This document shows, piece by piece, positions 3,001 through 26,781 of a DNA stretch of 32,000 nucleotides. Made by a program: the position numbers and the translations under genes. The notes beneath the pieces are model-generated. The model saw only the letters and a list, made by a program, of their open reading frames with translations. It had not been told where the DNA came from and made no database searches. The DNA comes from Alphaproteobacteria bacterium. GTDB lineage: Bacteria > Pseudomonadota > Alphaproteobacteria > Rs-D84. Each line of letters opens with the position of its first letter. Positions within the stretch are counted from its first letter, which is position 1. The stretch is taken from NCBI GenBank assembly GCA_017475605.1, contig JAFVFD010000002.1, positions 150,001 through 182,000 of the forward strand, written 5' to 3'.

Positions 3001-6000
3001 CAGGCCTGACATCATTACCGGACGCACCATTATTCGGAATCATCGGCCCACACACCCAAGATGGCACGGGCACAACCCCAACCGCCGCATATATGTTTGC
3101 GAACACATTCCGTGGGTGCACATCACTTGCCGGCTTTATCCCAGCCCAAATGTTTTGGTATTGGAACACAGACAAATTTAGTGCTGCCGATGGTATGTTT
3201 TCTAACGTGTTTACTGATACGAAATTAACTGGCAAGTGTCCAACCGGATACAAGCAATTTGTAACAAATTTTGAAAAGCACTGGGGTTGGACCAGTGCCG
3301 GCGTGTACCCCCAGACATATCGTGTCGCATGCGAACGTGATTCTTCGTGTGATTTGGGCTATGTGTGGAATGGGTCAGAATGCGTAGAATCCACAAACGG
3401 CACCCCGAAAACATGCACCGCCGGAGCCGAAGATGAAATAAAAATAAATGACACCCAATGTGTTAAAAATAGTTTTTATATAACAACAAGCCCAACCAGT
3501 TCGTTTGATTTCAATATCAGTGCCGCTGGTATATTCTATGTCGATTGGGGTGACGGCAACGTTCAGACCATTAATCGCGAAAACAACGTTACACCAGCCG
3601 ACATATCGCATACATACGCCAGCGAACAGGAACGCGTGATAAAATTTGGTGGTATTGCAAACGGATATAACAGTGTCTATTCCACAGCTGCGATATCTTT
3701 TAATGCCATTAACAATTCTGCATATGACAAGATAACCGGAATTGGTGGTTCGTTGGGCGCAATATTCCCAGCGGTTGGCCCAGGCAGCACACACATACCA
3801 TCATTTTATGGAACATTCAGTGGATGCAAAAACATCGAAAGTGTTATTCCATACGACTTGTTCGCAGGCAGTTTGAACTCATCGCCACGATCGGGTATGT
3901 TTACCGGTACATTTTATAACTGCAAGAAACTTGTTGGGTTTATACCACAAAATATGTTTGGTAACATCAGCACCATACCGTCAAATGCAGATATATTTGA
4001 AAACACATTCGGGAATTGCGACAATCTTGCAACCGAAACCACTGGCTGTGGCGCAGATGGATACGCACAATATATCAGTGGATTCGAATCGCAATGGAGT
4101 AATCACATTATGTGCGGCAGCACCTACAGCAGTGGCACATGGAATGGATATATATCGGCATCCCCGATAAATTGTTCAGCATCTGAACACAAATATTTCA
4201 ATGGATTCTTCAATAAATGTATGTGTGATGTTGGATATTATGAATACATACCGAATCGTGGAACATCAAACGAAGGTACCCCAGAGTGTGTTCCATATGA
4301 TTCATATGGAATGGCATTATGTACCAAAGAAAAACAATATGTGTGTTACAACATAAATAGTCTTGGGAACGTAAGCTTGCTGTCAAATTCAGATTATGAT
4401 TATACGCGGCTTGTTGGACATCAAATGGCGGCGATGAAAAATAATGGTACCCAAGTTGGCCGGTGTATCGCATATGTTGGCACTGGTTCCGACAAGCAAC
4501 TTGTTGATGCTGGATATGACGCGTACGATTGGAACAAAAATAATTACGGACGGACAAAATATTGTGGCAATTCTAATGACTATTTGTTCAAGATTAAATT
4601 CCAGGACCAAAACGGCGCCCCAATCAGTGTTCATATCAACGGATTGTTTGATGAGCCGGTTGATCACATTATCATTAATCCAAACATTGATTATTCATCC
4701 GTCATACCAGGCTATACACATCGTTGGCGTTACCCGAACGAAGATGTAAATGATTTGTTACGCGTGATAAAGGCCGATCCGGCAAACGCGACACTGTTCA
4801 GCAATTACATCATGGAATCCCGTATCAAATCCAATGGTAACACCAATGGCGAACAAGGGTACAACACTGGCGAATTGTATTTCCCAGACAATGTTCGTGC
4901 CGAACCTGCGTTTGCCAGCGACGATGGATATTATCCAACAGAATACTATTTGACATTTAATTCAATAACATGTGCTGAAAATCAGTTCGCCACAAATGGA
5001 AGCTGCGTTGATTCTAAATTCAGTGTCATCACCACAAATAACACAAACAGTTTGATATTCAGTTTGGGCGCCCAAGGAACATTCTTTGTTGATTGTGGCG
5101 ACGGTGGCACATTGACGCAAGCCGCCAATTCGCATGGCACAATTTCCGGCAAGCAGATTACTCGCAGTCTTACCTCTGAAACAACATATACATGCACATG
5201 GTCGTCCGCGGGCGAGCATACGATACGGTTTGGCGGCGAAGCAACTGGATATGGGGATAATAGTACAATATCATTTTATCAGCAATCTAACGGCACCCAA
5301 GATAAAATCAAATCTATCAGTGGGTCATTGGGGGCAATATTCCCAGTGGTTGGTGGTGTGGTACCTAAATTTAGCTACACATTTTATAGCACAAGGATAA
5401 CATCGATACCAGCCAACTTGTTCAGTGGCATTGACACGTCATCAGCAACAAATACATCTGATATGTTTAGTTATACTTTCAACAATACAAACATAACATC
5501 AATTCCATCTGACTTATTCAGCACAATTAATACATCTTCAGCAACAAATACGGACAGTATGTTTTTGGGCACTTTTGGATATACAAACATAACAGAAATA
5601 CCAGCCAACTTGTTCAGCACAATTGACACATCATCTGCGACCAATACATCTCATATGTTTAATTCTACTTTCAACAATACAAACATAACATCAATTCCAA
5701 CTGGGTTGTTCGGAACAATCAATACATCTTCAGCAATACAACTGTACCAAATGTTTTTTTCAACGTTCCAAAGTACAAAAATAACAGAAATACCCGTTGG
5801 ATTATTCGACACAATTAATACATCATCTGTAACAGACCCCGAAGATAATGCACGCACTATGTTTGCTAATACATTCTATGGCACACCAATAACAAAGATA
5901 CCAGCTGGATTATTCCAAAATATTACCGTTGCAGGCAACTACATGTTCTCTGACACATTTGCCCGTTGCAGCAACCTATCTGGATATATACCGTATAGTG

Positions 6001-6167
6001 CATTCAAGGGCCTTATTGACGCTGATTCACCAATCGCAGATAAAATGTGGAAGGGCACATTTGATTCTACACAGTTGATTAAAACAGTATGTCCATATAA
6101 CACAACACCAGTTTCAACCCAATATGAAACAGAATGGGGCGGTTACGTGGTGTGCGAACCGAATTAA
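3..6167 (+). CDS. Giant modular repeat protein, 5'-partial (2,054 codons inside the window). It consists of reiterated super-modules: Cys loop, PKD-like domain, GSLG motif, LRR-like repeat array, Cys cap.
   Basis: Frame 3 is open from nt 3, with no stop before the GTG at 195 that the ORF track used as a start, so the true start lies left of the window. It is a single ORF ending at TAA 6165-6167. The motif 'AAG(I/T)FY(I/V/Y)D(W/C)(G/D)DG' recurs at nt 78-125, 1190-1237 and 3510-3557, with a variant 'GAQGTFFVDCGDG' at 5060-5105. Each copy is followed by 'GGxATGY', 'AISF', 'GSLGxxFP' and many 'IPxxLFxGIxGxPxxxMFxxTF' units. Confidence 0.85.
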   Translation, partial: EIRINETQCARTKFRINTTSDADEFLIYIGAAGTFYIDWDDGSAPSVITHATPIAVPYSHKYTTVQSRTIRIGGLATEYPPLNINPAISFFYNNISHPNYIHSVSGSLGELFPSYGTAVGQTPRFRNTFLYATNMYTIPNTLFSGISNGSGTVAPISSMFEGTFKHSGLTEIPTGLFAEIGGAPANSMFEETFYMAENLAGEIPSDLFAGIRGAPAEQMYERTFGSTKLSGELPDYLFGNLNGAPQYAMFMQTFVNDTGLTGQIPDHLFGDLTGSIDVRWAFYETFKGCSKLTGYIPSTLFGTVTGNAGDGTFSDTFTGTGLLENICPSNFHPYPTYNNRFATYWDGHIACEADDAIPADPALGTCTDAENEIVVGDGKCVTSKFIVETKSVSKVVFSISAAGIFYYDCGDGKGGHVINRTDDTTPRTYYCNYDTTGKYTVRFAGTATGYSTDEQTAAISFNYNESDSSKCDITSITGSLGSVFPSIDSTGTNGKTPRFTNTFKYCGLDSIPENLFSGVNGQPVSYMFMGTFSGAKATSIPAGLFSGINGTPTPHLFEGTFSGMTLLSGTISSDLFAGIRGEPAPYMFKSTFQNCYDNFYKRSFSIDDDLFSGISGAPATSMFESTFEHTTLNKLPPRLFRRISGAPATKMFAHTFDGTSPYEGGTCLMTTTPTETGGHFVADNFFGDIRGDATVDMFAGTFNNCHKMTGAIPQNLFGGHNLTGAAQEGVFSSTFESCSGLTGEIPDYLLGQLSGDAQPWAFNSTFYGCSGLTGTVPEHLFSGITGDIHMSFTYTFRGTGITAIHRNLFSGLNKITTNMLNNTFEDCTGLTEIPANLFASLNGKSATDANVTYHNGKRNEYSIGDIFEETFKGCTGLTSLPNKLFAGISGTVAGMFWGTFANTGITSIPADLFYDATTGTGISGATTERMFKETFAGCTNLASIPATLFAGISGAPAKYMYSGTFQGCTGLTTLPATMLFGNISGAPAEYMFQNTFMGCTGLTSLPDAPLFGIIGPHTQDGTGTTPTAAYMFANTFRGCTSLAGFIPAQMFWYWNTDKFSAADGMFSNVFTDTKLTGKCPTGYKQFVTNFEKHWGWTSAGVYPQTYRVACERDSSCDLGYVWNGSECVESTNGTPKTCTAGAEDEIKINDTQCVKNSFYITTSPTSSFDFNISAAGIFYVDWGDGNVQTINRENNVTPADISHTYASEQERVIKFGGIANGYNSVYSTAAISFNAINNSAYDKITGIGGSLGAIFPAVGPGSTHIPSFYGTFSGCKNIESVIPYDLFAGSLNSSPRSGMFTGTFYNCKKLVGFIPQNMFGNISTIPSNADIFENTFGNCDNLATETTGCGADGYAQYISGFESQWSNHIMCGSTYSSGTWNGYISASPINCSASEHKYFNGFFNKCMCDVGYYEYIPNRGTSNEGTPECVPYDSYGMALCTKEKQYVCYNINSLGNVSLLSNSDYDYTRLVGHQMAAMKNNGTQVGRCIAYVGTGSDKQLVDAGYDAYDWNKNNYGRTKYCGNSNDYLFKIKFQDQNGAPISVHINGLFDEPVDHIIINPNIDYSSVIPGYTHRWRYPNEDVNDLLRVIKADPANATLFSNYIMESRIKSNGNTNGEQGYNTGELYFPDNVRAEPAFASDDGYYPTEYYLTFNSITCAENQFATNGSCVDSKFSVITTNNTNSLIFSLGAQGTFFVDCGDGGTLTQAANSHGTISGKQITRSLTSETTYTCTWSSAGEHTIRFGGEATGYGDNSTISFYQQSNGTQDKIKSISGSLGAIFPVVGGVVPKFSYTFYSTRITSIPANLFSGIDTSSATNTSDMFSYTFNNTNITSIPSDLFSTINTSSATNTDSMFLGTFGYTNITEIPANLFSTIDTSSATNTSHMFNSTFNNTNITSIPTGLFGTINTSSAIQLYQMFFSTFQSTKITEIPVGLFDTINTSSVTDPEDNARTMFANTFYGTPITKIPAGLFQNITVAGNYMFSDTFARCSNLSGYIPYSAFKGLIDADSPIADKMWKGTFDSTQLIKTVCPYNTTPVSTQYETEWGGYVVCEPN
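5397..5885 (+). repeat. In-frame tandem repeat of 96 nt (32 aa). There are four regular units, followed by a longer, more diverged unit (5781-5885), inside the last super-module of the giant gene.
   Basis: Units start at 5397, 5493, 5589, 5685 and 5781, each beginning 'ataaca(tc/ga)a(a)t(a/t)cc'. The peptide units are 'ITSIPANLFSGIDTSSATNTSDMFSYTFNNTN', 'ITSIPSDLFSTINTSSATNTDSMFLGTFGYTN', 'ITEIPANLFSTIDTSSATNTSHMFNSTFNNTN' and 'ITSIPTGLFGTINTSSAIQLYQMFFSTFQSTK'. Long identical nucleotide runs are visible between units. Confidence 0.85.
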
Positions 6168-9060: not shown

Positions 9061-9080
9061 CCGCCACATTGGCGGTTTTT
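9061..9080. terminator. Bidirectional intrinsic terminator between acpS and the convergent 712-aa gene
   Basis: The sequence is 'aaaaaaa-ccgcc-acatt-ggcgg-ttttt'. Confidence 0.65.
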
Positions 9081-9138
9081 ATTTTATACCGTTTTACTGT
9101 AACGGCGGGAAACAATCGCCATCAACACAACACATATA

Positions 9139-11277
9139 TTAACCAGATGTGTACATATATGTTTCACCCGCACAACACCCATTTGCATCCGGTGCCGCAC
9201 CGTCCGAACAAGTTTCCACTTCACCCGATACAACATCAGATTCCAGAACCTCGGACGCGACTATTTCAGGCGCACCACCCAGTGTTGCCACCGGCATCGG
9301 CTGGACATCTGTATCCGGCGAATAATTCGATTCGACAACGGTTTCCGAATCATATTCAGGGGCCGCAACAAACATCTTTTCGTTTTGCGAAACACTGTAT
9401 CCCGGTTTGCGTGCCAATATTTCTTCTTCGGTTGGAATCGGTTTCTTTTCAGGTTCATAATTCGCGACCGTACGCAAATCAACAAACGGACTTTCCACCG
9501 AAATATTATCCGGTTCCGGTGTTGCGACAACCGCAACTGGTTCTGGTTCCGGTTCCGCCGCAATCGGTTCCGATTCGATTTCAGACACCGCAACCGCAAC
9601 AGGTTCAGGTTCGACAACCGGTGCTGGCTCTTCCTGGGCTATTGGTTCCACAACCGGTTCTGGTTCAGATACCGTCGCAGGTTCCGCCTGGTCCACAGTC
9701 GGATTAACAAACGGACTTGGGATATTTGTTTCGTTATTCTTCTTGGTATCAGTTGCCGGTTCCGCTGTTTCCGATACTGTCGTTGTTGTGGTCGCCGCCA
9801 AATCTGGCAACACCGCACCATTCTTTGTTTGATACAGCCACAATGTAAATATCGACAGCGCAATCAACAGTATCAACATAATGTAATATATAAACGTCGG
9901 CTTCTTGGCATAATGTACATCCGTTTGCGTAATTGTGTTTCCGGTTATAGGCGACACCGGACGCACAGGCGCAATCGGTTCAACCGGCGCAACGGGCTCT
10001 ATCGTTTCTATTTCGGCAACCGGTTCCGGCATTTGTGCTGCGGTCCCAACCGGTTCATTATTAACATCCGCCGGGGCAGGTTCCACAGCCGGTTCCACAA
10101 CAAACGTATTTTCCAATTCGGCCGGTTGTTCCACAGGTGTCAAACTGTCCAACATTGGTACAGATGTTTCTTCTGTATCGTTTTCAGACACAGGCGCACT
10201 TGATGTTGGTGGGGTAAATAACAGCGGTGCAGGTGCCACAGGTTCCGAATAAGCCGGCGATGGTTCACTACGTGGCGCACTGTTTACCGGCGCATCAAAA
10301 TCAATAGGCTTGAACGCAATATTATCGTCCAGTATTTCAGGGTCGCGATCAAACAATGGTTTTACGGCATCGTTATATGGCATTTCTTCGTCCGCCGCCG
10401 AATCGTCTTCTTCATATGTGTCTTCTATATAATCATCGGCATAATTTGAATCATTTTCTTCGTCATCGGTGTAATCGTCCGTTTCTTCTTCATCTTCCAC
10501 AACAGGCTGAGTAACGACAGGGCGATGTGTTGTCGCGTGCGATGTTTTCGTTGTCGTGCGACGTGGCGCATCAAAATCCGTATGGCGCGCCAAAATTGCG
10601 CGCGCAATTTCTGCATCATCTTCGGCAACGACAAGGCGACGCTGTGCACTGTCCAAACGTTTTTTTGCGCGTGCCAACTTTTCATTGGTTGCATCTATTT
10701 GAGCCTCGGTCTTTAAGATTTTAGCCGCAGATGATTTAGTCGGTTCGCGCCCAATTCCACGTCTTTGTTCAGACAATTTTGAACGCAAGGTTTTAATACG
10801 ATCGCGCAATTCTGAAATGGTTTCGTTGGTACGTTCAATCGTTTCGCGGGCCTTGGCCGCGGCATCTTCTGCGGCATCAAGGCGTTCGCGTGCCGCGCGA
10901 CGCACCGACATAATGCGAAAACGTTTCAGGTTTTCAAGTGGCTCTTTCAAACTTTCTTCGGCATCATATGCATCAAAAAGTTCGGAATACACATCCAGTC
11001 CACTATATTCAATATCCAGTTTTTGATATTTATTATCCCGCTTTGGACGCACAGTTTCTAAATCAATACCGTAATCATTGGACAAAATATCGTCCCATTT
11101 ACGATCGTCAAAAGAATCAATAACCAGCAGGACATTTGGTTTGTCTGCATTAATCGTCTCGTCAAGCACAAAAATCAATTCGTGCGCACCATCATAATAC
11201 GCCCGAAAATCGTTGCCTTTGATATTATATTCGACAACTTTTATTTTTTTTGAACGGTTTTCTCTCTCGCGTGGCAT
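9139..11277 (-). CDS. Bitopic membrane protein with a coiled-coil N-terminal domain, an acidic tract, one TM helix and a Pro/Glu/Val-rich C-terminal region. Function unknown.
   Basis: It is a long ORF. The ATG at 11277 has an AGGA 7 nt upstream, whereas the track start at 11298 is a TTG. The Arg/Ala/Glu-rich segment 'RRAARERLDAAEDAAAKARETIERTNETISELRDRIKTLRSKL' is predicted coiled coil. The TM helix is 'PTFIYYIMLILLIALSIFTLWLY'. There are 'EPEPVVEP/EPEPEPVAV' repeats, and the C-terminal end reads 'CSDGAAPDANGCC'. It starts 24 nt after the gcrA stop. Confidence 0.75.
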   Translation of the reverse strand: MPRERENRSKKIKVVEYNIKGNDFRAYYDGAHELIFVLDETINADKPNVLLVIDSFDDRKWDDILSNDYGIDLETVRPKRDNKYQKLDIEYSGLDVYSELFDAYDAEESLKEPLENLKRFRIMSVRRAARERLDAAEDAAAKARETIERTNETISELRDRIKTLRSKLSEQRRGIGREPTKSSAAKILKTEAQIDATNEKLARAKKRLDSAQRRLVVAEDDAEIARAILARHTDFDAPRRTTTKTSHATTHRPVVTQPVVEDEEETDDYTDDEENDSNYADDYIEDTYEEDDSAADEEMPYNDAVKPLFDRDPEILDDNIAFKPIDFDAPVNSAPRSEPSPAYSEPVAPAPLLFTPPTSSAPVSENDTEETSVPMLDSLTPVEQPAELENTFVVEPAVEPAPADVNNEPVGTAAQMPEPVAEIETIEPVAPVEPIAPVRPVSPITGNTITQTDVHYAKKPTFIYYIMLILLIALSIFTLWLYQTKNGAVLPDLAATTTTTVSETAEPATDTKKNNETNIPSPFVNPTVDQAEPATVSEPEPVVEPIAQEEPAPVVEPEPVAVAVSEIESEPIAAEPEPEPVAVVATPEPDNISVESPFVDLRTVANYEPEKKPIPTEEEILARKPGYSVSQNEKMFVAAPEYDSETVVESNYSPDTDVQPMPVATLGGAPEIVASEVLESDVVSGEVETCSDGAAPDANGCCAGETYMYTSG

Positions 11278-11301
11278 GTGTGTATCCTGGGGTTTCAAGT
11301 A

Positions 11302-11937: not shown

Positions 11938-12013
11938 TTTACAAATTCCTTGTTATCATTTATCATATAATAAGTGTATCATAGTTCCGATTCGAAACGC
12001 AAGGGAGAAAAAT

Positions 12014-12487
12014 ATGATTTTTTATTTATTTTTAGCATTATTATTTGCCGGTGCCATTGGGTGCGCGGTGGCGATTTCTGTGGCAGATTTTCGCCGTCGC
12101 ATAATACCAGATGCGTATTTAATACCGTTATTTTTGATTGGGTTGATGGTTGTTAATTTTGTACCAAACTGGATATGTGGTCCACGCACAGCGGTTGTCG
12201 GGGCCGTATTGGGTTATGTACTGGGGGCGGGGGTAGGCTTTGTTTTTGATATTATACGGCAACGAAAAAATCCACGTTCCGATGCGCCGATTGGCATGGG
12301 CGACATAAAATTATTAGCGACCGGCGGTTTATGGTTGGGTCCAAATGGTCTGGCAATTGCGTTGGTATTATCGTGCCTTTTCGGTGGCGTATGGGCATAT
12401 GTTAAAAAGCAACAATTTATCCCATTCGCACCATTCTTTATTGCGGGTGCAATTTTGTCTTTAATTACAACCGCATTTTTGTTATAA
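12014..12487 (+). CDS. Prepilin-type aspartic peptidase, family A24 (CpaA/TadV-like, with no methyltransferase domain)
   Basis: GGGAGA Shine-Dalgarno precedes the ATG at 12014. The protein is polytopic and 157 aa long, with 'ADFRRRIIPD' and 'GMGDIKLLATGG', the two catalytic-Asp motifs of Peptidase_A24. The track ORF starting at 11537 is an artefactual extension antisense to gcrA. Confidence 0.75.
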   Translation: MIFYLFLALLFAGAIGCAVAISVADFRRRIIPDAYLIPLFLIGLMVVNFVPNWICGPRTAVVGAVLGYVLGAGVGFVFDIIRQRKNPRSDAPIGMGDIKLLATGGLWLGPNGLAIALVLSCLFGGVWAYVKKQQFIPFAPFFIAGAILSLITTAFLL

Positions 12488-12509
12488 TAAGAAAACAGTA
12501 GGGATAAAG

Positions 12510-13412
12510 ATGAGAATAAAACACAGCATATTTTTCACACTATGCGTTGGTACATTTGTATCGGCGACAAACGCGGCACCGATTGCGCAAAACCCTACAT
12601 CTGTGCAGCCGATATCGCAATACGGCCTTATACAGAATGTACAAAATTATTCGTCTAATCCGTTTTGGAATCCCAATGGCCCATATAATCAGCGTATGCC
12701 CCAACCGGTATATGTCCAGGGTGCCGATTTAAATACCGCCGATTGCCAACGTACCGTTGGTACACTTGTCGCATCATATTGTGTTGATAATAATAACTGT
12801 GTCGGCATGCGGATAAGTGATATTCGCCCGGCGATGATGTTACAACTGGCGCGGTTGCCGGGACATAATTATGCGACGTCTTGTGCGGGGTTCATTGATT
12901 CTGAATTTGAAAGTTATGTTTCAAAATATTCAAATGCGGGGCCGTCCAATTCTTATGTTGCTTTTCCAAATGCGACCACACCTAATCCGGCAATTTATGA
13001 AACAGAATATGAAATACAAAACCCATATCAAATAAAAAACCGTACTTGGAACGGCGAGGAATGGGAAAAAGAAAAAAAGGAACGCATTCGCGAACTTGAT
13101 GAATTACAGGCACAGAACGGCGCAAACGATATTAAATTAGCGCGCGCTGATTTTCCAACCACTATTGACGATTTGTCATTTGATGAACGTATGGAATTGC
13201 AGGCTGCTGGATACGAACCATGGAAAGATGCCACACCATATCAGCAGATAAAGATTGAACGCGAAGAAGATTATTATAATCGCCGCAACGGTGGCACAAC
13301 CACGGTTTCAGATGCATCAACACCAAACGCACCAACAAAACCCGGCCAATCAACTGTTGTTTATCCAAATGTTCCGGGATATGACGGCGCAAAACTTGTT
13401 TATCTAAGATAA
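12510..13412 (+). CDS. Exported protein of unknown function (300 aa)
   Basis: The signal peptide is 'MRIKHSIFFTLCVGTFVSATNA'. There is a Cys-containing N-terminal half and a charged 'WEKEKKERIRELDELQ' segment. The gene lies 22 nt after the A24 peptidase gene. Confidence 0.75.
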   Translation: MRIKHSIFFTLCVGTFVSATNAAPIAQNPTSVQPISQYGLIQNVQNYSSNPFWNPNGPYNQRMPQPVYVQGADLNTADCQRTVGTLVASYCVDNNNCVGMRISDIRPAMMLQLARLPGHNYATSCAGFIDSEFESYVSKYSNAGPSNSYVAFPNATTPNPAIYETEYEIQNPYQIKNRTWNGEEWEKEKKERIRELDELQAQNGANDIKLARADFPTTIDDLSFDERMELQAAGYEPWKDATPYQQIKIEREEDYYNRRNGGTTTVSDASTPNAPTKPGQSTVVYPNVPGYDGAKLVYLR

Positions 13413-13416
13413 CGTT

Positions 13417-14415
13417 ATGAACAGATTTTGTCTTGCTTTTTTATTCGCATTTTTAGGCATTGTTTCAAATGCGACCGCCGCGAATCTGCAATGTTTGGCA
13501 GACATTGGCGCGAACGATGCGACATTTATAACCCCGATGTATAACGATGTGTTGGCGGGACAAGCACCGACCCAGGAAAACATTGATGCAAATAAACCAA
13601 AAATGTTCGGTCTGGTTGCGGCAAATGTTATATTACAATGCCTTAACGGCCCGGACAGAAATGATTTCCAAACCGTCGCAGACAGCAAAGAATTCATTAT
13701 TCCGTTCACTTATAAAGATAAAGTTAAATATAAGTTGCAGGTTGACACGGCAAAATTGTTTGACTATGTCAATTTGCCAACCGGTTTTTTAGTTGTCAAC
13801 AAACGCACATATATTCCAGGCGATGTTATAAAAAAATCTGATATGCCAACCGATTATTTCTTTAGCAGCGATTGTTCAGATCACTATGTTCGCCTTAATT
13901 TGTCAGATGACGCTGGGGTGAACGTGGCGGGTCAATCGGCATTTGCCGCATATGGTGGCAAAGAAAACGAATATTTCCTGGATTTTCCGGTTGAAAAAAA
14001 TTGCCGTGCATTCCCCGGTTTGGTATTGGGGGACTTTGGCGGATGGGGTGCCCCTGAAAAAATCATTGCATACACAAATTATCTGGATGCCCAGGGGGCC
14101 GCTGAATCTTTTGCCAAGGCATTACAAAACACATCATGCGCGAATCAAAACCTGGCCGTATATTTGGTATCACTGGAATCAATGCCGGCACAAAAGGATG
14201 GCACAACGGGCATAGTTATCGGCGCAGGTGTTGGTGGTGGGGCGGCGGCTGCAACATTAACCGCTGTTTTGGCATCTAATCCGGTTGGGTGGGTTGTTGG
14301 TGCCGTTGGTTTGGCGGTTGGCGGAATTATTGCCGGGGTATCTTCGTTGTTTTACAAAGACCTGGCCGATATTCAACAGGTGGTCGTTCTTAAAGGGCCA
14401 TATATAGTAAAATAG
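13417..14415 (+). CDS. Exported protein with a C-terminal glycine-zipper membrane hairpin (332 aa). Function unknown.
   Basis: The signal peptide is 'MNRFCLAFLFAFLGIVSNATA'. The C-terminus reads 'GIVIGAGVGGGAAAATLTAVLASNPVGWVVGAVGLAVGGIIAGV'. The start lies 4 nt after the previous stop. Confidence 0.75.
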   Translation: MNRFCLAFLFAFLGIVSNATAANLQCLADIGANDATFITPMYNDVLAGQAPTQENIDANKPKMFGLVAANVILQCLNGPDRNDFQTVADSKEFIIPFTYKDKVKYKLQVDTAKLFDYVNLPTGFLVVNKRTYIPGDVIKKSDMPTDYFFSSDCSDHYVRLNLSDDAGVNVAGQSAFAAYGGKENEYFLDFPVEKNCRAFPGLVLGDFGGWGAPEKIIAYTNYLDAQGAAESFAKALQNTSCANQNLAVYLVSLESMPAQKDGTTGIVIGAGVGGGAAAATLTAVLASNPVGWVVGAVGLAVGGIIAGVSSLFYKDLADIQQVVVLKGPYIVK

Positions 14416-14416
14416 T

Positions 14417-16279
14417 ATGTATGAAATTGTTGCGGTTTTATTTTCTGTGATTTTTATTGGTTCCGCATATTCTGCGGAACAACTTGTTCCAACGCAAAAT
14501 ATTGACACCCCCGGTTTTCGCACGGCCGATGAAATATTATATGCCAACCCCGATGATACAAGGTGCGCGACCGCGGTTTTTGCAAATGCATTGGCGACAA
14601 CGGCAAACGCTGTATCCGAAGATGACGATGAACAAACAATTCAGCAATGGATATATCAGACATTTTCAGTCCCAGATGTATTAAATGCGGTCTTACGGTG
14701 TCCCGAATTTCAAAACATTGCCGATGACGACAGTGTGCGTTTTTTACCAATAGAATATAATTTTCCCGGTGGCCGACAAATCGTTGTAAATTATGAAACC
14801 CAACCAAAGATTCTGAAACAACGTATAAACCTGGCATCTAAACGCAATGTGGCCGAATTAAACGACCCGAACCCACGTATAGGCGCGATTGACGATGAAG
14901 CGGTTTGGACTAATACTGACCCGGCATGGTATGCGATTATGGTTGTGCAACACGGAACACTGGATAACTTTGTCGGCCCCGATAAAAACAACACAATATC
15001 TTTAAAATACATAAATGACAATATTGACACACTGTATCCGCACGGGGCAATGTGTACCAGTAAAAGCGCACTGGCCAACGATAATGACATAATAAACATT
15101 GCCACACATAACACGGTTGGCATTGACGATGATTCCAATGATTACTATGTGGCGGGCGATGTTAATTTGCAATGGATTTCATACGCCGAAATTGCACTGG
15201 ATGTTGTAATCACGGTTGTAACATTTGGGGGTGGGGCAGCCGTTAGTGGCGCGACCAAGGCCGCCCGTGCATCAAAAACGGTTAAAAACCTGTCCCGCGG
15301 TATCAAGGAACTATCAAAAATTGATACTGTCAAAGATTACATTGTTCACACATCTAAATTGGCCCGCGCCGAAGGGAAATTATCACGCATCCGCGAAGTG
15401 CAACGACTGGAAAGCGAACTGGCCAAATTGGACCGGGTAAAAAATGCAAAAAAATATGCCGAAAAGGCCAAGGAACTGGAACACGCAACCACCCGCCTGC
15501 GCGAAGTGGATAAAATAACCGATGCATCCAAATATGGCAAAACTGAAATCACGGCAATGGAAAAAAACATTTCCGAAATGAAACAGGAATCTGAACGAAT
15601 GATACGGGCCGATAAAAATGTTGCCCAATATGCAAAATCAACCGAAGAACTTAAAAATGTTGAAAAGTATGCCCAGGCATACCGTACATTAAAGACCCAA
15701 AAAGCAGGTAATATTGCCACACGCGCATGGCGCGCGTTCAAGGCATCGCGTACCGGCGGCAAAACATTAAATCGCGGCGCGCGTGTTGCCAGGCAATCTA
15801 TGAAATCGGGGCGTGTGCGCGATTGGTTGTTTCAATCAACAATGCGCAATCTGGGCAAACTGGGTAAATTGGAATCGGCGGGCGGGGTGCTCTATGGTGC
15901 GTTAAAATTTGCCGGCGATATGTATGATTGGACCGAAACCAGCACTGGCGATTTTACAAGCGGAATTGAATTTAAGCCACTGTTATTGTTGTCCGCCGAC
16001 GATTTAGAAGGCCAGGAAAATGTCGTAAATTACGGCATGTGGCTTATGTGGGCGGGCGATGCAACGACCGCCGCCGATGATGATGCCGCATATTTACAGG
16101 CCTTTGATTTTGCAGACAAGTTCCATATGGACCTGCTTGAAACAATGGACGACAAAAACAGCACTGCATGTAATGTTGATATTTATGTCGTGCGCCCCGT
16201 ATTGCGAAACCCCAGCGGCGACAACCCGGAATTATATTATCTTGTTATGAACGACCAACCATGGACGACCGCCGAATGA
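14417..16279 (+). CDS. Membrane protein of unknown function (620 aa) with an N-terminal signal or anchor, a central TM helix, a Lys/Glu/Arg-rich coiled coil and an acidic C-terminal domain
   Basis: The N-terminus is 'MYEIVAVLFSVIFIGSAYSA' and the TM helix is 'IALDVVITVVTFGGGAAVSGA'. A long segment 'KLARAEGKLSRIREVQRLESELAKLDRVKNAKKYAEKAKELE...' follows. The start lies 1 nt after the previous stop. Confidence 0.75.
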   Translation: MYEIVAVLFSVIFIGSAYSAEQLVPTQNIDTPGFRTADEILYANPDDTRCATAVFANALATTANAVSEDDDEQTIQQWIYQTFSVPDVLNAVLRCPEFQNIADDDSVRFLPIEYNFPGGRQIVVNYETQPKILKQRINLASKRNVAELNDPNPRIGAIDDEAVWTNTDPAWYAIMVVQHGTLDNFVGPDKNNTISLKYINDNIDTLYPHGAMCTSKSALANDNDIINIATHNTVGIDDDSNDYYVAGDVNLQWISYAEIALDVVITVVTFGGGAAVSGATKAARASKTVKNLSRGIKELSKIDTVKDYIVHTSKLARAEGKLSRIREVQRLESELAKLDRVKNAKKYAEKAKELEHATTRLREVDKITDASKYGKTEITAMEKNISEMKQESERMIRADKNVAQYAKSTEELKNVEKYAQAYRTLKTQKAGNIATRAWRAFKASRTGGKTLNRGARVARQSMKSGRVRDWLFQSTMRNLGKLGKLESAGGVLYGALKFAGDMYDWTETSTGDFTSGIEFKPLLLLSADDLEGQENVVNYGMWLMWAGDATTAADDDAAYLQAFDFADKFHMDLLETMDDKNSTACNVDIYVVRPVLRNPSGDNPELYYLVMNDQPWTTAE

Positions 16280-17394
16280 ACATAAAAAAACATATTTTTT
16301 TGTTCGGAATAATACTTGCTATATGCGGCAATGTGTTCGCGGTGTCTCCCTATGCGACTACGATTGGACAGAATTTGCCAAAAAAATCTTTTTTAACAGC
16401 AACTTCATTTCCAACGACCATATCCGATGTGTCTTTTGTCGCCAGAATGGAAAACAAGCGCGAAGGATATTTACCATATTTTAACCGTTCTGCATTTGCC
16501 GATTTGTCATTGGACGAACAAGACGAATTGGAACAAATGGCATCTCGCGCCGATGTGGAACGACGGGAAACACTTAAAAACAACCCATCAAAATATTGTT
16601 CGTTTTATCCAGATGATTCTGGCAGGTGTGGCACACACCCAACGGAACCGGTAATACCACAGGCACAGACAACAGTACAACCCGATTCTATATACCCAAT
16701 CAGCCCATCAATCCAGATTGTGTCGGCTTATCCCGCCGGGCGTTATATGAACGCGGCGTTAACCCCGGAAAACATCGCAAAATACAACTTGCGCGCATAC
16801 AATGGTGGGTGTACGCCGCCGGAACGCAGCAATCATTGGCGAAACACCATTTTAACATCTGGACGGTACCAGTATTCGCACCCCGCATTTGAAAAATTTA
16901 TGATTACATCTTTCCGCAAGGAAGGCAGTTGTGGAAATCATCCGAACGACCATGGTGGCTATACTTGTTATGGGTGCGCATCAAAGGGCCTTTGTTCCGG
17001 GATAGATATGAGCCAGGTTACACGCCCCCTGGTCGAAGATTTGTATTATCAAAAGGTGTACACAAAATACAATGTTGCCAAATTACCCGATGCATTCCGC
17101 GGATATTTGCTGTGGGGGATGTCGGGTTCGGGCTCTGTAACCGGAATAAAGCAATTTCAGGGAACACTTGGTGTGCCATTGACTGGCAAAATAGATGCCG
17201 CAACCATTGCCGCCGCCGAAAATTATACTGGCGATTTTGCCGCCGCATACACTAAAAACAGAGAACAATTTTATCGAAATATTGTTGCCCGCGATTCAAC
17301 ACAACGCGTGTTTCTTAACGGCTGGCTGAACGGATTACAATTGTTACAACCGTCTGGTTGCCATGTCGTACCAACAAACCCGATTTACCGATAA
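16276..17394 (+). CDS. Exported lysozyme-like protein with a GH108-type N-acetylmuramidase core, a PG_binding_3-like C-terminus and an N-terminal extension of about 200 aa
   Basis: The ATG at 16276 overlaps the upstream TGA (ATGA coupling) and gives the signal peptide 'MNIKKHIFLFGIILAICGNVFA'. 'FRKEGSCGNHPNDHGGYTCYG' resembles the GH108 'EGGY.N.P.DPGG.T.YG' motif. The C-terminal 'FYRNIV......FLNGWLNG' resembles PG_binding_3. Confidence 0.6.
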   Translation: MNIKKHIFLFGIILAICGNVFAVSPYATTIGQNLPKKSFLTATSFPTTISDVSFVARMENKREGYLPYFNRSAFADLSLDEQDELEQMASRADVERRETLKNNPSKYCSFYPDDSGRCGTHPTEPVIPQAQTTVQPDSIYPISPSIQIVSAYPAGRYMNAALTPENIAKYNLRAYNGGCTPPERSNHWRNTILTSGRYQYSHPAFEKFMITSFRKEGSCGNHPNDHGGYTCYGCASKGLCSGIDMSQVTRPLVEDLYYQKVYTKYNVAKLPDAFRGYLLWGMSGSGSVTGIKQFQGTLGVPLTGKIDAATIAAAENYTGDFAAAYTKNREQFYRNIVARDSTQRVFLNGWLNGLQLLQPSGCHVVPTNPIYR

Positions 17395-17455
17395 AAATCT
17401 CATTGTTTTTAGGATACAAAAACTGTATAATTACAGGGAAGGCAAGGGGACAAAA

Positions 17456-17773
17456 ATGAAAAAATTATTACTTTCTGCACTGATTGTATTTTTAACGACA
17501 TTGTCGGCAAACGCATATCAGGTTTTATCATCCAAGGAATTGGGGCAACTGGATGCAAAAAATCAAAATGTTGTTGTAAAATGCACAACCGACACCGGCA
17601 AGGTATCGAATCAAACATGTTCACTGCGCCGCTATGCAAAATGTTCCGGCGCGGGCAGTACAAAAAAATGTTCCGGCTGGCAACCGTGGACCGACCTGCG
17701 AACACCGGGCAAACAATATTCTGATTGGAAAACCGCCGCATCTGCATGTTGTCGTGCGATGGGCTTGCGGTAA
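17456..17773 (+). CDS. Small Cys-rich secreted protein (105 aa)
   Basis: 'aaggggacaaaaATG' provides a strong Shine-Dalgarno sequence. The signal peptide is 'MKKLLLSALIVFLTTLSANA'. The mature part has 7 Cys. The track start at 17363 has no such support. Confidence 0.7.
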   Translation: MKKLLLSALIVFLTTLSANAYQVLSSKELGQLDAKNQNVVVKCTTDTGKVSNQTCSLRRYAKCSGAGSTKKCSGWQPWTDLRTPGKQYSDWKTAASACCRAMGLR

Positions 17774-17779
17774 ACATAT

Positions 17780-18091
17780 ATGGCATCCAGTAAAGATTTT
17801 CTAGATTTTGTTTTAGAACAATTGTCGGCATTGCCTGACATTGATTGTCGTGCAATGATGGGTGAATATATAATTTACTTTCGTGGGCGGATTATTGGCG
17901 GCATATACGACAATCGTTTTCTTGTTAAACCAACTGCAAATGCCAAAAAGATTATACCAAACGCTCCGATGGAAATACCATATTCGGGTGGCAAGCCAAT
18001 GCTTATGGTAACCGATATTGAAAATCGGAAATTGCTAGAAAAACTTTTTATCGCGATGTATCCAGAATTGCCTGATAAAAAACAAAAATAA
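17780..18091 (+). CDS. TfoX/Sxy N-terminal-domain protein
   Basis: 'DFLDFVLEQL....RAMMGEYIIYFRGRIIGGIYDNRFLVK' matches the TfoX_N pattern (R.MFGGYG.Y..GK.FA.I.DD.LYLK). Length is 103 aa. The start lies 6 nt after the previous stop. Confidence 0.6.
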   Translation: MASSKDFLDFVLEQLSALPDIDCRAMMGEYIIYFRGRIIGGIYDNRFLVKPTANAKKIIPNAPMEIPYSGGKPMLMVTDIENRKLLEKLFIAMYPELPDKKQK

Positions 18092-18092
18092 A

Positions 18093-18118
18093 ATCGGCAT
18101 TTTGCCGATTTAATTTTT
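18093..18118 (+). terminator. Intrinsic terminator ending the 12014-18091 gene string
   Basis: The hairpin is 'atcggca-ttt-tgccgat', followed by 'ttaattttt'. Confidence 0.7.
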
Positions 18119-18119
18119 G

Positions 18120-18196
18120 TGGTGGATGTGGGCGGACTCGAACCGCCGACCCCTACGATGTGAACGTAGTGCTCTAACCAACTGAGCCACACATCC
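18120..18196 (-). tRNA. tRNA-Val (anticodon CAC)
   Basis: The reverse complement is GGATGTG-TG-GCTC-AGTTGGTTA-GAGC-A-CTACG-TTCACAT-CGTAG-GGGTC-GGCGG-TTCGAGT-CCGCC-CACATCC-A-CCA. Length is 77 nt. Confidence 0.9.
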
Positions 18197-18234
18197 TAAA
18201 TCGGTGGTCTGCCACACAAAGCCTTGACAAAGTG

Positions 18235-18321
18235 TGGTGGGGATAGTGGGACTTGAACCCACACGGTCGCAATGACCAAAGGATTTTAAGTCCTCAGCGT
18301 CTACCATTCCGCCATATCCCC
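18235..18321 (-). tRNA. tRNA-Leu (anticodon UAA)
   Basis: The acceptor is GGGGATA/TATCCCC, the anticodon arm is GAGGA-CTTAAAA-TCCTT, there is a long variable arm, and the T arm is GTGGG-TTCAAGT-CCCAC. CCA is encoded. Length is 87 nt. Confidence 0.9.
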
Positions 18322-18334
18322 GGACTTAACTTTT

Positions 18335-18355
18335 AAAACGCGCGCTTTGCGCGCG
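18335..18355 (-). terminator. GC hairpin plus U-tract inside the tRNA cluster. It could be a terminator or a processing signal.
   Basis: The minus strand reads 'cgcgcgc-aaa-gcgcgcg-tttt'. It lies between tRNA-Ala and tRNA-Leu(UAA). Confidence 0.45.
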
Positions 18356-18361
18356 GAAACT

Positions 18362-18437
18362 TGGTGGAGCTGATGGGACTCAAACCCACGACCTCTACGA
18401 TGCGAACGTAGCGCTCTATCAACTGAGCTACAACCCC
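18362..18437 (-). tRNA. tRNA-Ala (anticodon CGC)
   Basis: The acceptor GGGGTTG/CAGCTCC contains the G3:U70 Ala identity pair. The anticodon arm is CTACG-TTCGCAT-CGTAG and the T arm is GTGGG-TTTGAGT-CCCAT. CCA is encoded. Length is 76 nt. Confidence 0.88.
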
Positions 18438-18453
18438 AAAACTTTCATTCATA

Positions 18454-18540
18454 TGGTGGGCATAAGAAGACTCGAACTTCCAAGGTATTGCTACCACTAG
18501 TACCTGAAACTAGCGCGTCTACCAATTCCGCCATATGCCC
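18454..18540 (-). tRNA. tRNA-Leu (anticodon CAG)
   Basis: The acceptor is GGGCATA/TATGCCC, the anticodon arm is CTAGT-TTCAGGT-ACTAG, there is a long variable arm, and the T arm is GGAAG-TTCGAGT-CTTCT. CCA is encoded. Length is 87 nt. Confidence 0.9.
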
Positions 18541-18693: not shown

Positions 18694-21408
18694 ATGAAGA
18701 ATATCCTGATTTTTATTATTGCGATTGCAATGTCTTTGTCGCACGCAAACGGTGCTGTGCGTGATGGCAACACATTGTCGCGCGGCACACAAAAACGGAT
18801 TACGACCACACCGGCTGTTGAACGCACAACAACCGCACGAACAACCGTCTTGAAACCGACAAAAAGCACGACAAATCGGGGCGTTTCAAATGTTACACAA
18901 CGCGGCAACAATCAGGCAAATATCGTCAGCCGGACCGCAACCACCCAAAATGTTACGGCACGCGCCACCACACAGAACCAATCACTTGTAACCGAAACCC
19001 GCACTGGCGCGGCCTATGAAACCTGTAAATCGGCATTTTTTACATGTATGGACCAATTTTGCGCACTAAAAAATGATGATTACCGCCGTTGTTCGTGCAG
19101 CAAACGTGTATCAAACCTGGAAAAGCAACGCAACACTTTGACAGATGCGGGCGAAAAACTTACTGTGTTTACGGAAAATCTTGATGTTGTTGGCTTAACC
19201 GCGGCCCAGGCAACAGCAATGCGTACCGCATCCGAAGGGGAAAACGCGCTGGCATCAGACACATCTGCATCCAAGGCATTATTACAAGCCATAATGAATT
19301 CTATTTCGGGGGGCGACACATCTGTTAGTGGCAAATATTCTGACCTAAACACAATAAATATGTCGTACGATTTGACAACGGCATTTGGATCCGATGCAAA
19401 CCAAATCGTCGCTTCCTATAACGGCCAGGAATTGTATTCGGCGGTATATCCACAATGTCGTCATGCCGTTGCCGATGATTGTAATACAGCATCGTTACAA
19501 CGCGCAGTAAACGCATACCTTATGGCTATTGAACAAGACTGTAATACCGTACAAACCGCAATTATTGAGAAACAATCACAAATGAAATCCGCCATCCGCG
19601 AAGGTAGCGCCATGTTGGATCTGGCACGCGTTGAAAATCGTCGTAAACATAATTCTGACGATATTACCACATGTATAAACAATGTAGAGGCCGCAATTTT
19701 AAGCGAAGAAGTTTGTGGCGCAAATTATCATAAATGCTTGGACAACGGTGAATTTATCGATATATCGACAGGCGCACCCATCACAGGTGTTGTAAAGTTT
19801 TACGAGTTGGGTAAATTATTAACTTTTGCCCCGGGTGTTGATGCCGCCAACCAACAATTGTCAAAGCGGCCAAATAATCGTACATTTGTTTTAAACTTTG
19901 AAAAACGCACAAAGAAATTCGCAGAACCGGCATTGGACAAGTGTACCGATATCGCGGACGAAGTATGGTCCGAATACCTGGACAAAGCGATGTTGACAAT
20001 TTATTATGCCCAGCAAACCAAGGTTTCTGATATTAAACAGGCCTGTTTCGATTTAGTGTCAAAATGTTACACCGACAGCGACACATCTATTACCGCGGCG
20101 ATGTCGGAATTGGTCGGTTCTGGTCTAACAATTTTGGAACCAGACAAAATCGCACTTACCACACAAATGTGTGTCGATTATGTTGATTCTTGTAACAACA
20201 TGTTTGATGGTAATATTGTTGCCGAATATGTTAATACCCGTCAAGACACAGATACACTTAGTGCATGTCGTGCCGTTGTAAAACAATGTTTTGATAAATA
20301 CGGTGGCACAGGGTATGAAAACTTCTACTATCCATACAGTGGCTTGTTTCAAGCAGGCGAAACATCCGACCCCAACATTGTTCGGGCGGGTGATTGGTTC
20401 ACACTTTATGACAAAACAGGGCGCACGCTAACGGCATATAAATCACCCTGTGCAAAACAGTTGGCAACTATTGACGCATGTAAAGGCATCGTAGAAGAAG
20501 CATTTGGTGGATTTGATTTAATGTACACACAAAAGGGTACGGACGAAACAGACCAATTGTCTTTTGAAATTTTGTCATCAAGTGGAACACCACGTTATGG
20601 TATCGCCCAAACAGAAAACAAAATGCGCAATCGTGTTTTACGTCCAACGGGTGTTGCCACCGAGGTTTACAATCAAATTATCGATACACTTACCACACAG
20701 TGCACCAATATCAAAGGACGGTTTGTTGAACGCCAATTTATCAAAGAAAATATATACGGTGGTAAAAACAAAGACAACATCTGTCTTTGGTACCCCCAGG
20801 GTAGCGAAGATAATTCAGAAGGCCAAAACGAATCTTCATTGTTCAAGAATTATAAAATATTGGCAACATTGTACGGCATATTTACAAATGACCCCCAACA
20901 ATCAACCATAAGTATTCCAGACGATTTTATCGGCGAAAATATGTGCCCACGCGATTATAACATTAATGTTGATACTGCTTTCTGGGGGGCATGTTTATGT
21001 TGGGAAAATGGTGCCCGCCGCAGTAAAAATGGGCGAAATGCAACCTGTGTTGCAGAATTGCCTGTATTACCAAAAGAAACGACCGATGACACCACAGGCG
21101 AAACGACAACAACACACGCAAACGATGGGGTATGTTACAATATAACCAAGGACGAAACAACCAACGAAGAAACACTTGAATGGCTGTATCCACTTGCCAG
21201 CAGTACAAATTCAACATCGAATTTCTATGATTGGTGCCAACAGCAATCTATCAATTCCGCAGATCAGGTTTGTCCATATGGCTATACGGCGGGGGATAGC
21301 CCTGATAAACAATCAATAATATGTGTTGATGCCGATGGTAAAGCGTTTGAATCAAAAGAAAATCAATACTATGAAGCGTATAAATTGTTGCCAGAACCAC
21401 TTAAATAA
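18694..21408 (+). CDS. Large exported Cys-rich protein of unknown function (904 aa)
   Basis: The signal peptide is 'MKNILIFIIAIAMSLSHANG'. It is followed by a Thr/Arg/Asn-rich low-complexity tract ('RTATTQNVTARATTQNQS') and then about 800 aa with many cysteines ('CKSAFFTCMDQFCALKNDDYRRCSC'). A terminator follows. Confidence 0.8.
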   Translation: MKNILIFIIAIAMSLSHANGAVRDGNTLSRGTQKRITTTPAVERTTTARTTVLKPTKSTTNRGVSNVTQRGNNQANIVSRTATTQNVTARATTQNQSLVTETRTGAAYETCKSAFFTCMDQFCALKNDDYRRCSCSKRVSNLEKQRNTLTDAGEKLTVFTENLDVVGLTAAQATAMRTASEGENALASDTSASKALLQAIMNSISGGDTSVSGKYSDLNTINMSYDLTTAFGSDANQIVASYNGQELYSAVYPQCRHAVADDCNTASLQRAVNAYLMAIEQDCNTVQTAIIEKQSQMKSAIREGSAMLDLARVENRRKHNSDDITTCINNVEAAILSEEVCGANYHKCLDNGEFIDISTGAPITGVVKFYELGKLLTFAPGVDAANQQLSKRPNNRTFVLNFEKRTKKFAEPALDKCTDIADEVWSEYLDKAMLTIYYAQQTKVSDIKQACFDLVSKCYTDSDTSITAAMSELVGSGLTILEPDKIALTTQMCVDYVDSCNNMFDGNIVAEYVNTRQDTDTLSACRAVVKQCFDKYGGTGYENFYYPYSGLFQAGETSDPNIVRAGDWFTLYDKTGRTLTAYKSPCAKQLATIDACKGIVEEAFGGFDLMYTQKGTDETDQLSFEILSSSGTPRYGIAQTENKMRNRVLRPTGVATEVYNQIIDTLTTQCTNIKGRFVERQFIKENIYGGKNKDNICLWYPQGSEDNSEGQNESSLFKNYKILATLYGIFTNDPQQSTISIPDDFIGENMCPRDYNINVDTAFWGACLCWENGARRSKNGRNATCVAELPVLPKETTDDTTGETTTTHANDGVCYNITKDETTNEETLEWLYPLASSTNSTSNFYDWCQQQSINSADQVCPYGYTAGDSPDKQSIICVDADGKAFESKENQYYEAYKLLPEPLK

Positions 21409-26424: not shown

Positions 26425-26427
26425 GAG

Positions 26428-26781
26428 ATGTTGGCATTTACTAATTCAGAAGAGAAGCAATCGCCGACCGTAATTGGCGCGGGATGCAAAGTAACGGGTG
26501 ATATCAAAACCGATCACACCGTTCAAATTCATGGTTCTATTGTTGGCGACATTACCGCCACAACAGTCGTAATCGGGCGGGGTGGCGTTGTTGATGGGGC
26601 GATTGTTGCGGATAACCTGTTTTTGCACGGCACATTAAACGGGCCGGCAACCGTGAACAATGCCAATATGTTCAGTGCGGCCCAAATGCATGGCGAATTG
26701 TCATATCGCACGCTTAACATTACCGCAAACACCGCACTGGAATGCAAATTAACCAAACGCAAAGACAAAGATAAAAAATAG
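26428..26781 (+). CDS. Bactofilin (polymer-forming cytoskeletal protein)
   Basis: 'VIGAGCKVTGDIKTDHTVQIHGSIVGDITATTVVIGRGGVVDGAIVADNLFLHGTLNG' has the bactofilin beta-helix repeat pattern. An AGGAG Shine-Dalgarno is present. The start lies 3 nt after the M23 gene. Confidence 0.8.
   Translation: MLAFTNSEEKQSPTVIGAGCKVTGDIKTDHTVQIHGSIVGDITATTVVIGRGGVVDGAIVADNLFLHGTLNGPATVNNANMFSAAQMHGELSYRTLNITANTALECKLTKRKDKDKK

Follow-up and report, generated by a model that had tools for sequence, protein, structure and literature searches.

The 32,000-nucleotide stretch of contig JAFVFD010000002.1 analysed here (the window) belongs to an alphaproteobacterium of the Rs-D84/Enterousia type that lives in gut or rumen and has not been cultured. 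It carries an operon of six genes, which encode a prepilin-type peptidase of family A24 and five further proteins, P2 to P6, with a muramidase of family GH108 (P5) among them. The reading that we prefer, tentatively and with rather less than even confidence, is that the operon encodes a lineage-specific envelope complex scaffolded by P4, and that this complex has been inherited vertically within the Rs-D84/Enterousia lineage only. The core proteins of the operon belong to new families with no recognisable fold. The operon offers two leads of wider interest: a prepilin-type intramembrane protease that possibly works without pilins, and a muramidase of the TtsA class that would be tethered to a membrane scaffold and in some relatives is fused to it. 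Each of the two enzymes is an ordinary representative of a known family. What would be new is the assembly taken together, and this judgement was reached by exclusion, in that the gene set fits no known kind of system.

The setting of the operon is a lineage with small genomes. Rs-D84/Enterousia bacteria, which are common in the guts of humans, ruminants and poultry, have genomes of 0.75-1.0 Mb without flagella, tricarboxylic acid cycle, respiration or standard transporters and with parts of glycolysis missing as well; it has been proposed that they depend on partner organisms (PMC12306168). The gene cluster is kept in these reduced genomes by almost every species, and because it has been retained despite genome reduction, it is a strong candidate for something central to the lifestyle of these bacteria.

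Conservation of the gene block

In the window, the genes for A24, P2, P3, P4, P5 and P6 and a following TfoX_N gene are separated by 22, 4, 1, -4, 61 and 6 nucleotides, in that order. These spacings, the gene coordinates and the assignment of the A24 and GH108/PG_binding_3 products were all given in the original prediction, and the list of open reading frames and the Pfam matches bear them out. All five products other than the peptidase open with a hydrophobic segment that resembles a signal peptide. In the NCBI annotation the A24 product is named 'prepilin peptidase', and P2, P3, P4 and P6 are hypothetical proteins.

Conservation was scanned with one genome per GTDB species, which gave 184 stretches encoding a relative of P4. 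From these, 80 loci were fetched, and together with contigs found by exact protein look-up they make up a comparison set of 83 distinct related loci from species-representative genomes. The relatives, labelled Candidatus Enterousia or 'uncultured Alphaproteobacteria', all fall within the single order Rs-D84. A24, P2, P4 and P6 are encoded together in 74 of the 83 loci and collinearly on one strand in 73, which is beyond what chance would give, and where the full set fails, the contig in most cases ends. Compared with the window, the proteins have median identities of 55% (A24), 51% (P2), 55% (P4) and 73% (P6). The earlier note asked whether the six genes travel together, and these four do; an orthologue of P3, in contrast, is detectable in only 14 of the 83 loci (31-47% identity), and the gene for P5 is likewise absent from the block in most of them. 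The conserved core is A24, P2, a variable slot, P4 and P6.

Fusions and a shared motif

Three of the products are linked to each other in a way that does not depend on gene order, because they occur fused and because two of them share a motif. The most distant relatives of P4, found in a library of 1.84 billion proteins, are fusions in which a P2-like N-terminal half is followed by a P4 paralogue; these proteins form about two dozen clusters at 90% identity and occupy an unchanged position in the operon. P2 is fused to GH108 in P0434, P0438, L021 and L031, and in one relative, P0052, it is P4 that is fused to GH108. The natural fusions cover, in other words, all three pairings of P2, the P4-type protein and GH108. 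Domains are shuffled within the cluster in the related loci L021, L031, L029, L049 and L084, where P2-GH108 fusions of 531-560 amino acids are encoded after P4 and P2-P4 paralogue fusions of 669-729 amino acids after A24, which means that the same modules have been recombined repeatedly within the order.

The motif, about 35 residues long and of the form FPTTIxDxSFxxRM.....GYxPY, is common to P2 (13152-13290) and P5 (16408-16540). The fusion proteins retain it, and no other place in the window has it; it is a candidate docking peptide. Taken as Rosetta-stone signals, the fusions suggest that P2, P4 and the muramidase physically work together.

The candidate scaffold and its partners

When all products and the flanking proteins were compared with Pfam, NCBIfam, PHROGs and PADLOC, the only real profile matches were those to A24, GH108/PG_binding_3, TfoX_N and GcrA. 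P2, P3, P4 and P6 have no significant family in any of the four collections, and the earlier view that they match nothing known also holds for profile searches of the PDB with alignments of P4, of the P2-P4 paralogue fusion and of P6, in which nothing was found, and for fold searches with predicted models of the P2-like region and P4. Matches to DnaB, OppD, LmuB, JetC, tape-measure proteins and LeoBC were rejected as coiled-coil or low-complexity noise.

P4 has more than 814 homologues, none of them named. They are covered by only 130 representatives when the library of 1.84 billion proteins is clustered at 50%, and the family is therefore lineage-restricted. Along its sequence P4 has a signal peptide, an acidic N-domain (net charge -21), one clear internal transmembrane segment (residues 254-277), a basic coiled coil (residues ~285-470, net charge +25) the length of which varies among relatives, a hydrophobic segment (residues 485-499) and an acidic C-domain (net charge -17). 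This order, with its charge pattern, points to an out-in-out topology. In addition, the P4-GH108 fusion has no second signal peptide, and from this it follows that the C-domain of P4 should share the compartment of the muramidase, the periplasm. The N- and C-domains are mostly modelled by AlphaFold with confidence scores (pLDDT) of 77-94, and Foldseek found nothing better than E=0.07 for P4 in the PDB, where the matches were to coiled coils only.

P2 has 444 homologues, again without a name among them. It consists of a helical N-domain with four Cys residues and the conserved motif YGLIQNVQNYSSNPFWNPN..PYNQRMPQPVYVQGADL, of its own version of the shared motif (FPTTIxDLSFxxRM....GYxPW) and of a low-complexity tail. 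In an AlphaFold model of a P2-P4 paralogue fusion, the P2-like residues 70-130 reach pLDDT values of 87-96, and the fold has no Foldseek match in the PDB or BFVD, with none below E=0.4 in the latter.

The slot between P2 and P4 is hypervariable. It is filled by at least four unrelated families (M1-M4), which neither BLAST nor hhalign joins: M1, in 40 loci, with a putative glycine zipper and a Cys-rich C-domain; M2, a P3-like family of 11 sequences including P3 of the window; M3, of about 500 amino acids, in 9 loci; and M4, a 505-amino-acid paralogue of P4, in 3 loci. What these families have in common is only a signal peptide and Gly-rich hydrophobic segments. In P3 such a segment forms a C-terminal Gly-rich helical hairpin with repeated GxxxG (residues 266-308), and hhalign finds a resemblance between the N-region of P3 and the N-region of the P4 paralogue, at a probability of 72% (E=3e-5). 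The glycine-zipper families PF13488, PF13441 and PF13436 each match only 3-5 of 64 slot proteins (E 1e-4 to 2e-3), and no glycine-zipper family of Pfam matches P3 of the window.

P6 is the most conserved product of the cluster, with an identity to the window of 64-87% across loci. Its mature part, of about 84 residues, is basic. Over 44 orthologues the mean column identity is 77% and 42 positions are invariant, including all six Cys; seven had been counted earlier, and the number in the window is also six. P6 has no match in Pfam or the PDB. Like many extracytoplasmic proteins would be expected to be, P2 and P6 are rich in Cys, and so are most of the slot proteins. That P2, P5 and P6, each of which ends in Arg in the window, carry a common C-terminal sorting tag was considered and rejected, since the Arg is not conserved among P2 homologues.

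P5 is, judged from its profile matches and catalytic residues, a GH108 muramidase of the TtsA/NMB1012 class. It matches Glyco_hydro_108 (PF05838) with 27.7 bits against a cut-off of 21.2 and PG_binding_3 (PF09374) with 27.8 bits against 24.6, and its muramidase part (residues ~201-372) follows an N-terminal extension of about 200 residues. The nearest solved relative is NMB1012 (PDB 2ikb/2is5, E=1e-6; 2ikb E=1.2e-6), which is homologous in structure to TtsA, a muramidase of secretion (PMC6996933). In the putative catalytic triad, E216 and T230 are found in 18 of 18 sequences and D225 in 17 of 18, and the spacing of 14 residues from Glu to Thr is that of E14 and T28 in TtsA (PMC6996933).

Proposed assembly and points against it

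In the preferred reading, P4 would act as the scaffold. After removal of its signal peptide, its acidic N- and C-domains would both be periplasmic, joined via a membrane helix, a cytoplasmic, basic, antiparallel coiled coil and a weaker second membrane crossing. P2 and, where present, the Sec-exported P5 would dock onto P4, probably via the shared FPTT...GYxPY motif, and P5 would cut glycan strands locally, so that the assembly could sit in or cross the sacculus. The slot protein, here P3, would insert its putative glycine-zipper hairpin into a membrane and be the exposed, fast-evolving part, while P6 may be a disulfide-locked core structural or ligand subunit. A24 would be co-transcribed with the others from a strongly conserved, GANTC-containing promoter or leader beside gcrA. 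As to function, we infer that the complex faces outwards, as a surface or trans-envelope structure for dealings with the outside, such as contact with partner cells or uptake; the lineage lacks ordinary transporters and central metabolism.

A number of observations weigh against this reading. The second crossing of P4 is only weakly hydrophobic (Kyte-Doolittle value 0.87 over 15 residues), and the transmembrane region of P4 is modelled by AlphaFold with low confidence. No fusion involves A24, P3 or P6, so that these three are without a Rosetta-stone link, and the link of A24 to the other genes of the cluster is positional only. Only 17 related loci have a GH108 gene within the block, which means that peptidoglycan cutting is either dispensable or supplied from elsewhere; additional GH108 'hits' were obtained with tblastn because P5 carries the short motif that is also present in P2. 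The flanks, with cc719 and gcrA to the left and a 904-amino-acid Cys-rich protein, lpxB and lpxA to the right, are as syntenic as the cluster, and all relatives belong to one order, so that a functional unit cannot be proved from gene order by itself. An outward-facing or partner-contact function, finally, rests on the hypervariable slot together with the lifestyle proposal of one paper. The candidate envelope system of the original prediction is thus supported in part. The genes themselves, their conservation and fusions, the intact catalytic residues and the missing known homologues are observed; how the products assemble, their topology, the part played by the muramidase and the function of the complex are inferred.

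The A24 peptidase and the prepilin missing at the locus

A24 matches Peptidase_A24 (PF01478) with E=2.1e-15 and 57.5 bits against a cut-off of 26.5, and no NCBIfam model. It has the short CpaA/TadV-like form, without the N-terminal methyltransferase region, and about 5-6 transmembrane segments in a hydrophobicity scan. The catalytic motifs RIIPD and IGMGDxKL (IGMGDIKL in the window) are invariant among 72 orthologues, and by these motifs the enzyme should be catalytically intact. It resembles the CpaA/TadV peptidases in its size of about 157 residues, its polytopic character, its two catalytic Asp residues (D and GxGD) and the missing methyltransferase domain. It differs from them in that no Flp or pilin gene, CpaF/TadA ATPase, secretin or TadB/C is encoded next to it, and in that the genes downstream of it encode ordinary Sec-type exported proteins.

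As is established for the family, every characterised A24 enzyme cleaves class III signal peptides, which have G at -1, E at +5 and a hydrophobic helix. A motif search in six frames found no such prepilin or Flp signal in the window. Nor did it find a real one in the related loci, of which about 90 were covered, each up to 21 kb long and with as much as 10 kb of flank on either side; seven loose matches in these loci were rejected as internal fragments of other open reading frames. Furthermore, the genes called in the roughly 50 kb surrounding the cluster include no pilus, secretin or secretion-ATPase gene, nor is there any pilus or secretion family of Pfam there or in the gene tables of three related neighbourhoods. 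A Tad/Flp, type IV pilus or type II secretion locus is rejected, since no pilin or pseudopilin, ATPase, platform protein or secretin accompanies the cluster, and the earlier statement that the locus is not a canonical one of these kinds stands. One site within the cluster was considered, the invariant G247-DVNLQW before the transmembrane segment of P4, which loosely resembles the G/XXXXEY pattern, but it was rejected as a cleavage site because it would face the periplasm.

It is quite possible that A24 is a passenger and that its substrates are Flp/Tad, type IV or competence pseudopilins with genes in another part of the genome, the rest of the operon being a separate unit; the position of A24 would then reflect inherited gene order or shared regulation, and the rest of the preferred reading would be unaffected. 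This explanation agrees with the substrate range of characterised A24 enzymes, given that no class III signal peptide is found in the cluster proteins, with the missing A24 fusions, and with gcrA, cc719, lpxB and lpxA being just as syntenic as A24. It also agrees with the TfoX-like gene that follows the cluster in the window at the distance originally noted; this gene, however, is detected in only 1 of the 83 related loci and is not a conserved member of the cluster, and its product falls 0.2 bits short of the cut-off for TfoX_N (PF04993, 29.9 bits against 30.1) and is without TfoX_C. A pilin set remote from the locus is possible, but the searches around the cluster and in the related loci give no sign of one, and in a survey of Rs-D84 genomes type IV pili are reported for a different lineage only (PMC12306168). 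Nor does the distance between A24 and P2 suggest a passenger: it is kept at mostly 16-50 nucleotides (70 loci), and the block from A24 to P6 holds only members of the cluster families, whereas the position directly downstream of P6 accepts insertions, such as DpnI, MatE and hydrolase genes.

A bolder proposal, and a long shot, is that A24 is a true orphan in genomes of about 0.9 Mb without pilins. Its substrate would then be a membrane protein other than a pilin, encoded in the same operon and cut on the cytoplasmic side, and this cleavage would mature a new trans-envelope apparatus, with a wall-cutting enzyme and membrane-inserting hairpin proteins, by which these metabolically dependent bacteria attach to partner cells or tap them. 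The cut could be made in P4, at the Gly-Gly that comes after a very basic stretch and before the second, N-in/C-out hydrophobic segment; alternative candidate substrates are the slot proteins with their putative glycine zippers.

The leader and a possible role in cell division

The spacer between gcrA and A24 contains a promoter-like site (11938-11966) and, at 11986-11996, the palindrome TCCGATTCGAA, within which there is a GANTC site and downstream of which lies the Shine-Dalgarno sequence AGGGAGA. A core of 40 nucleotides in the spacer is 91% identical over 76 loci, compared with about 55-60% for the flanking proteins. The palindrome, with the consensus TTCGAWTCGAA, is found at a fixed distance from the start codon of A24, and the position of GANTC is fixed in 77 of 78 loci. 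Such conservation would fit a promoter or leader, and the GANTC site hints at control of the CcrM/GcrA type, in which case the palindrome may be an operator that acts on gcrA or on the operon. The window shows no depletion of GANTC, however, with 89 sites observed against 73 expected, and for this reason a CcrM-type logic is unproven.

The near-invariant GANTC leader beside the gene for a cell-cycle regulator also leads to a different explanation, which we consider unlikely, namely that the operon encodes a housekeeping complex for peptidoglycan remodelling or cell division, in which P4 controls P5 in step with the cell cycle. The nearby M23 peptidase-bactofilin pair and lpx genes would suit such a complex, as would the universal retention of the cluster in reduced genomes and weak coiled-coil fold matches to Cg1735 and SteB-RipA, which are peptidoglycan hydrolases or their regulators (E about 0.5-1). 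Those matches are not significant, however, and involve the coiled coil only; the hydrolase gene is outside the block or missing in most species; one would not expect a division machine to have a slot in which four unrelated and fast-evolving families alternate; and GANTC, as noted, is not depleted in the window. The known systems nearest to such an arrangement are EnvC-FtsEX, PcsB and SteB-RipA. They are like the present operon in that a membrane-linked coiled-coil protein is encoded with a peptidoglycan hydrolase, to which it is fused in P0052. They differ from it in that there is no sequence similarity or significant fold similarity and no ABC transporter partner here, and in that the charge distribution of P4 would put its coiled coil in the cytoplasm and not in the periplasm.

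The muramidase and possible transport across the wall

TtsA carries typhoid toxin through the cell wall (PMC6996933, PMC13284979), and in type 10 secretion systems with muramidases of this class the enzyme permits proteins to pass across the wall without lysis. P5 shares with these enzymes the GH108 domain with its Glu-Asp-Thr triad, followed by the helical PG_binding_3 domain. It differs from TtsA by its N-terminal extension, which has a Sec signal and the docking-like motif. In type 10 secretion, a holin and often a spanin are encoded together with a peptidoglycan hydrolase that lacks a signal peptide and with the cargo. An operon of similar purpose, where P5 opens the wall for Sec-exported cargo (P6, P2 or a slot protein) on its way to the outer membrane or the medium, is an improbable alternative to the envelope complex. 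The class of P5 (PMC6996933, PMC13284979) and the Sec export of the other products are what would be expected, but no holin or spanin family was found when the products were scanned with Pfam and PHROG, P5 has a signal peptide of its own where TtsA has none, and the muramidase gene, facultative in the cluster, is missing from the block in most species in which the putative cargo stays.

SpmX of Caulobacter and Asticcacaulis is a GH24 protein with its muramidase domain at the N-terminus and transmembrane segments at the C-terminus. It provides a parallel in that it is a membrane-associated protein of Alphaproteobacteria with a phage-type muramidase domain recruited to a non-lytic role, that of a developmental scaffold, in a cell-cycle-regulated setting (bioRxiv 10.1101/418723). 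P5 is different in belonging to GH108, in being Sec-exported, in its conserved triad and in its unrelated partners.

That the operon is a domesticated prophage, a gene transfer agent or what is left of a tail, in which the glycine-zipper protein would resemble a tape measure and the muramidase would be an endolysin, is very improbable and was rejected: the match of P5 to PHROG endolysins (E=1.4e-18) and the weak similarity of the P3 hairpin to PHROG tape-measure families (E about 1e-3) stand against P4 having no relative in IMG/VR and no tblastn match among INPHARED phages, the P2-P4 paralogue fusion model having no fold match in BFVD, synteny with chromosomal housekeeping genes being fixed across an order, and no capsid, portal, terminase or integrase being present in the window. 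An anti-phage defence system was rejected as well, after a PADLOC scan.

Features of the window

The features of the operon and its borders are collected in Table 1. The terminator, earlier placed near 18093, is confirmed as a hairpin, on which the tRNA genes of the opposite strand converge. An Rfam search found tRNAs alone.

Table 1. Positions of the operon genes, the leader, the terminator and the adjoining tRNA genes in the window
Feature	Position	Strand	Remarks
gcrA/A24 divergent intergenic region (76 nt)	11938..12013	.	TATAAT -10-like, near-invariant leader, palindrome, AGGGAGA Shine-Dalgarno
A24 prepilin-type peptidase, 157 aa	12014..12487	+	PF01478
P2, exported, 300 aa	12510..13412	+	no family match
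P3, exported, 332 aa	13417..14415	+	C-terminal Gly-rich hairpin (putative glycine zipper), variable slot
P4, scaffold candidate, 620 aa	14417..16279	+	signal peptide, transmembrane segment, coiled coil
P5, exported GH108 muramidase, 372 aa	16276..17394	+	Glyco_hydro_108 + PG_binding_3; ATGA overlap with P4
P6, secreted, 105 aa	17456..17773	+	6 invariant Cys
TfoX_N-only protein, 103 aa	17780..18091	+	PF04993 just under cut-off
Intrinsic-terminator-like hairpin, bidirectional, 9-bp stem	18091..18111	.	operon end
Four tRNA genes: Val-CAC, Leu-TAA, Ala-CGC, Leu-CAG	18120-18540	-	converge on operon's terminator

Two proteins without a Pfam family flank the cluster in most relatives and are restricted to the related loci. 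The first, cc719 (9139-11298, minus strand, 719 amino acids), has an N-terminal coiled coil, one transmembrane segment and an acidic, Pro-rich tail; the second (18694-21408, plus strand) is an exported, Cys-rich protein of 904 amino acids. Both could be part of the same envelope biology. Long open reading frames that overlap cc719 in other frames, on both strands at 9069-10252, are repetitive and of low complexity, and look like by-products of a biased Pro/Glu-coding sequence and not like genes.

An open reading frame of 2825 codons, also without a Pfam family, covers 195-6167 of the window, although its start lies some 2.3 kb further upstream (L091 1508-9985), between rpsA and an adenylate-kinase-like gene. 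It looks like an insertion that is absent from L084, L086 and L088, the three relatives with gene tables at hand, because these two genes are adjacent there. At 25147-26781 the gene for an M23 peptidase, which has a coiled coil in its N-region, directly precedes one for a bactofilin, a pairing like that of a cell-shape module. Finally, a 386-amino-acid protein with an autotransporter beta-domain (E=7e-7) and a short passenger region is encoded at 30461-31621.

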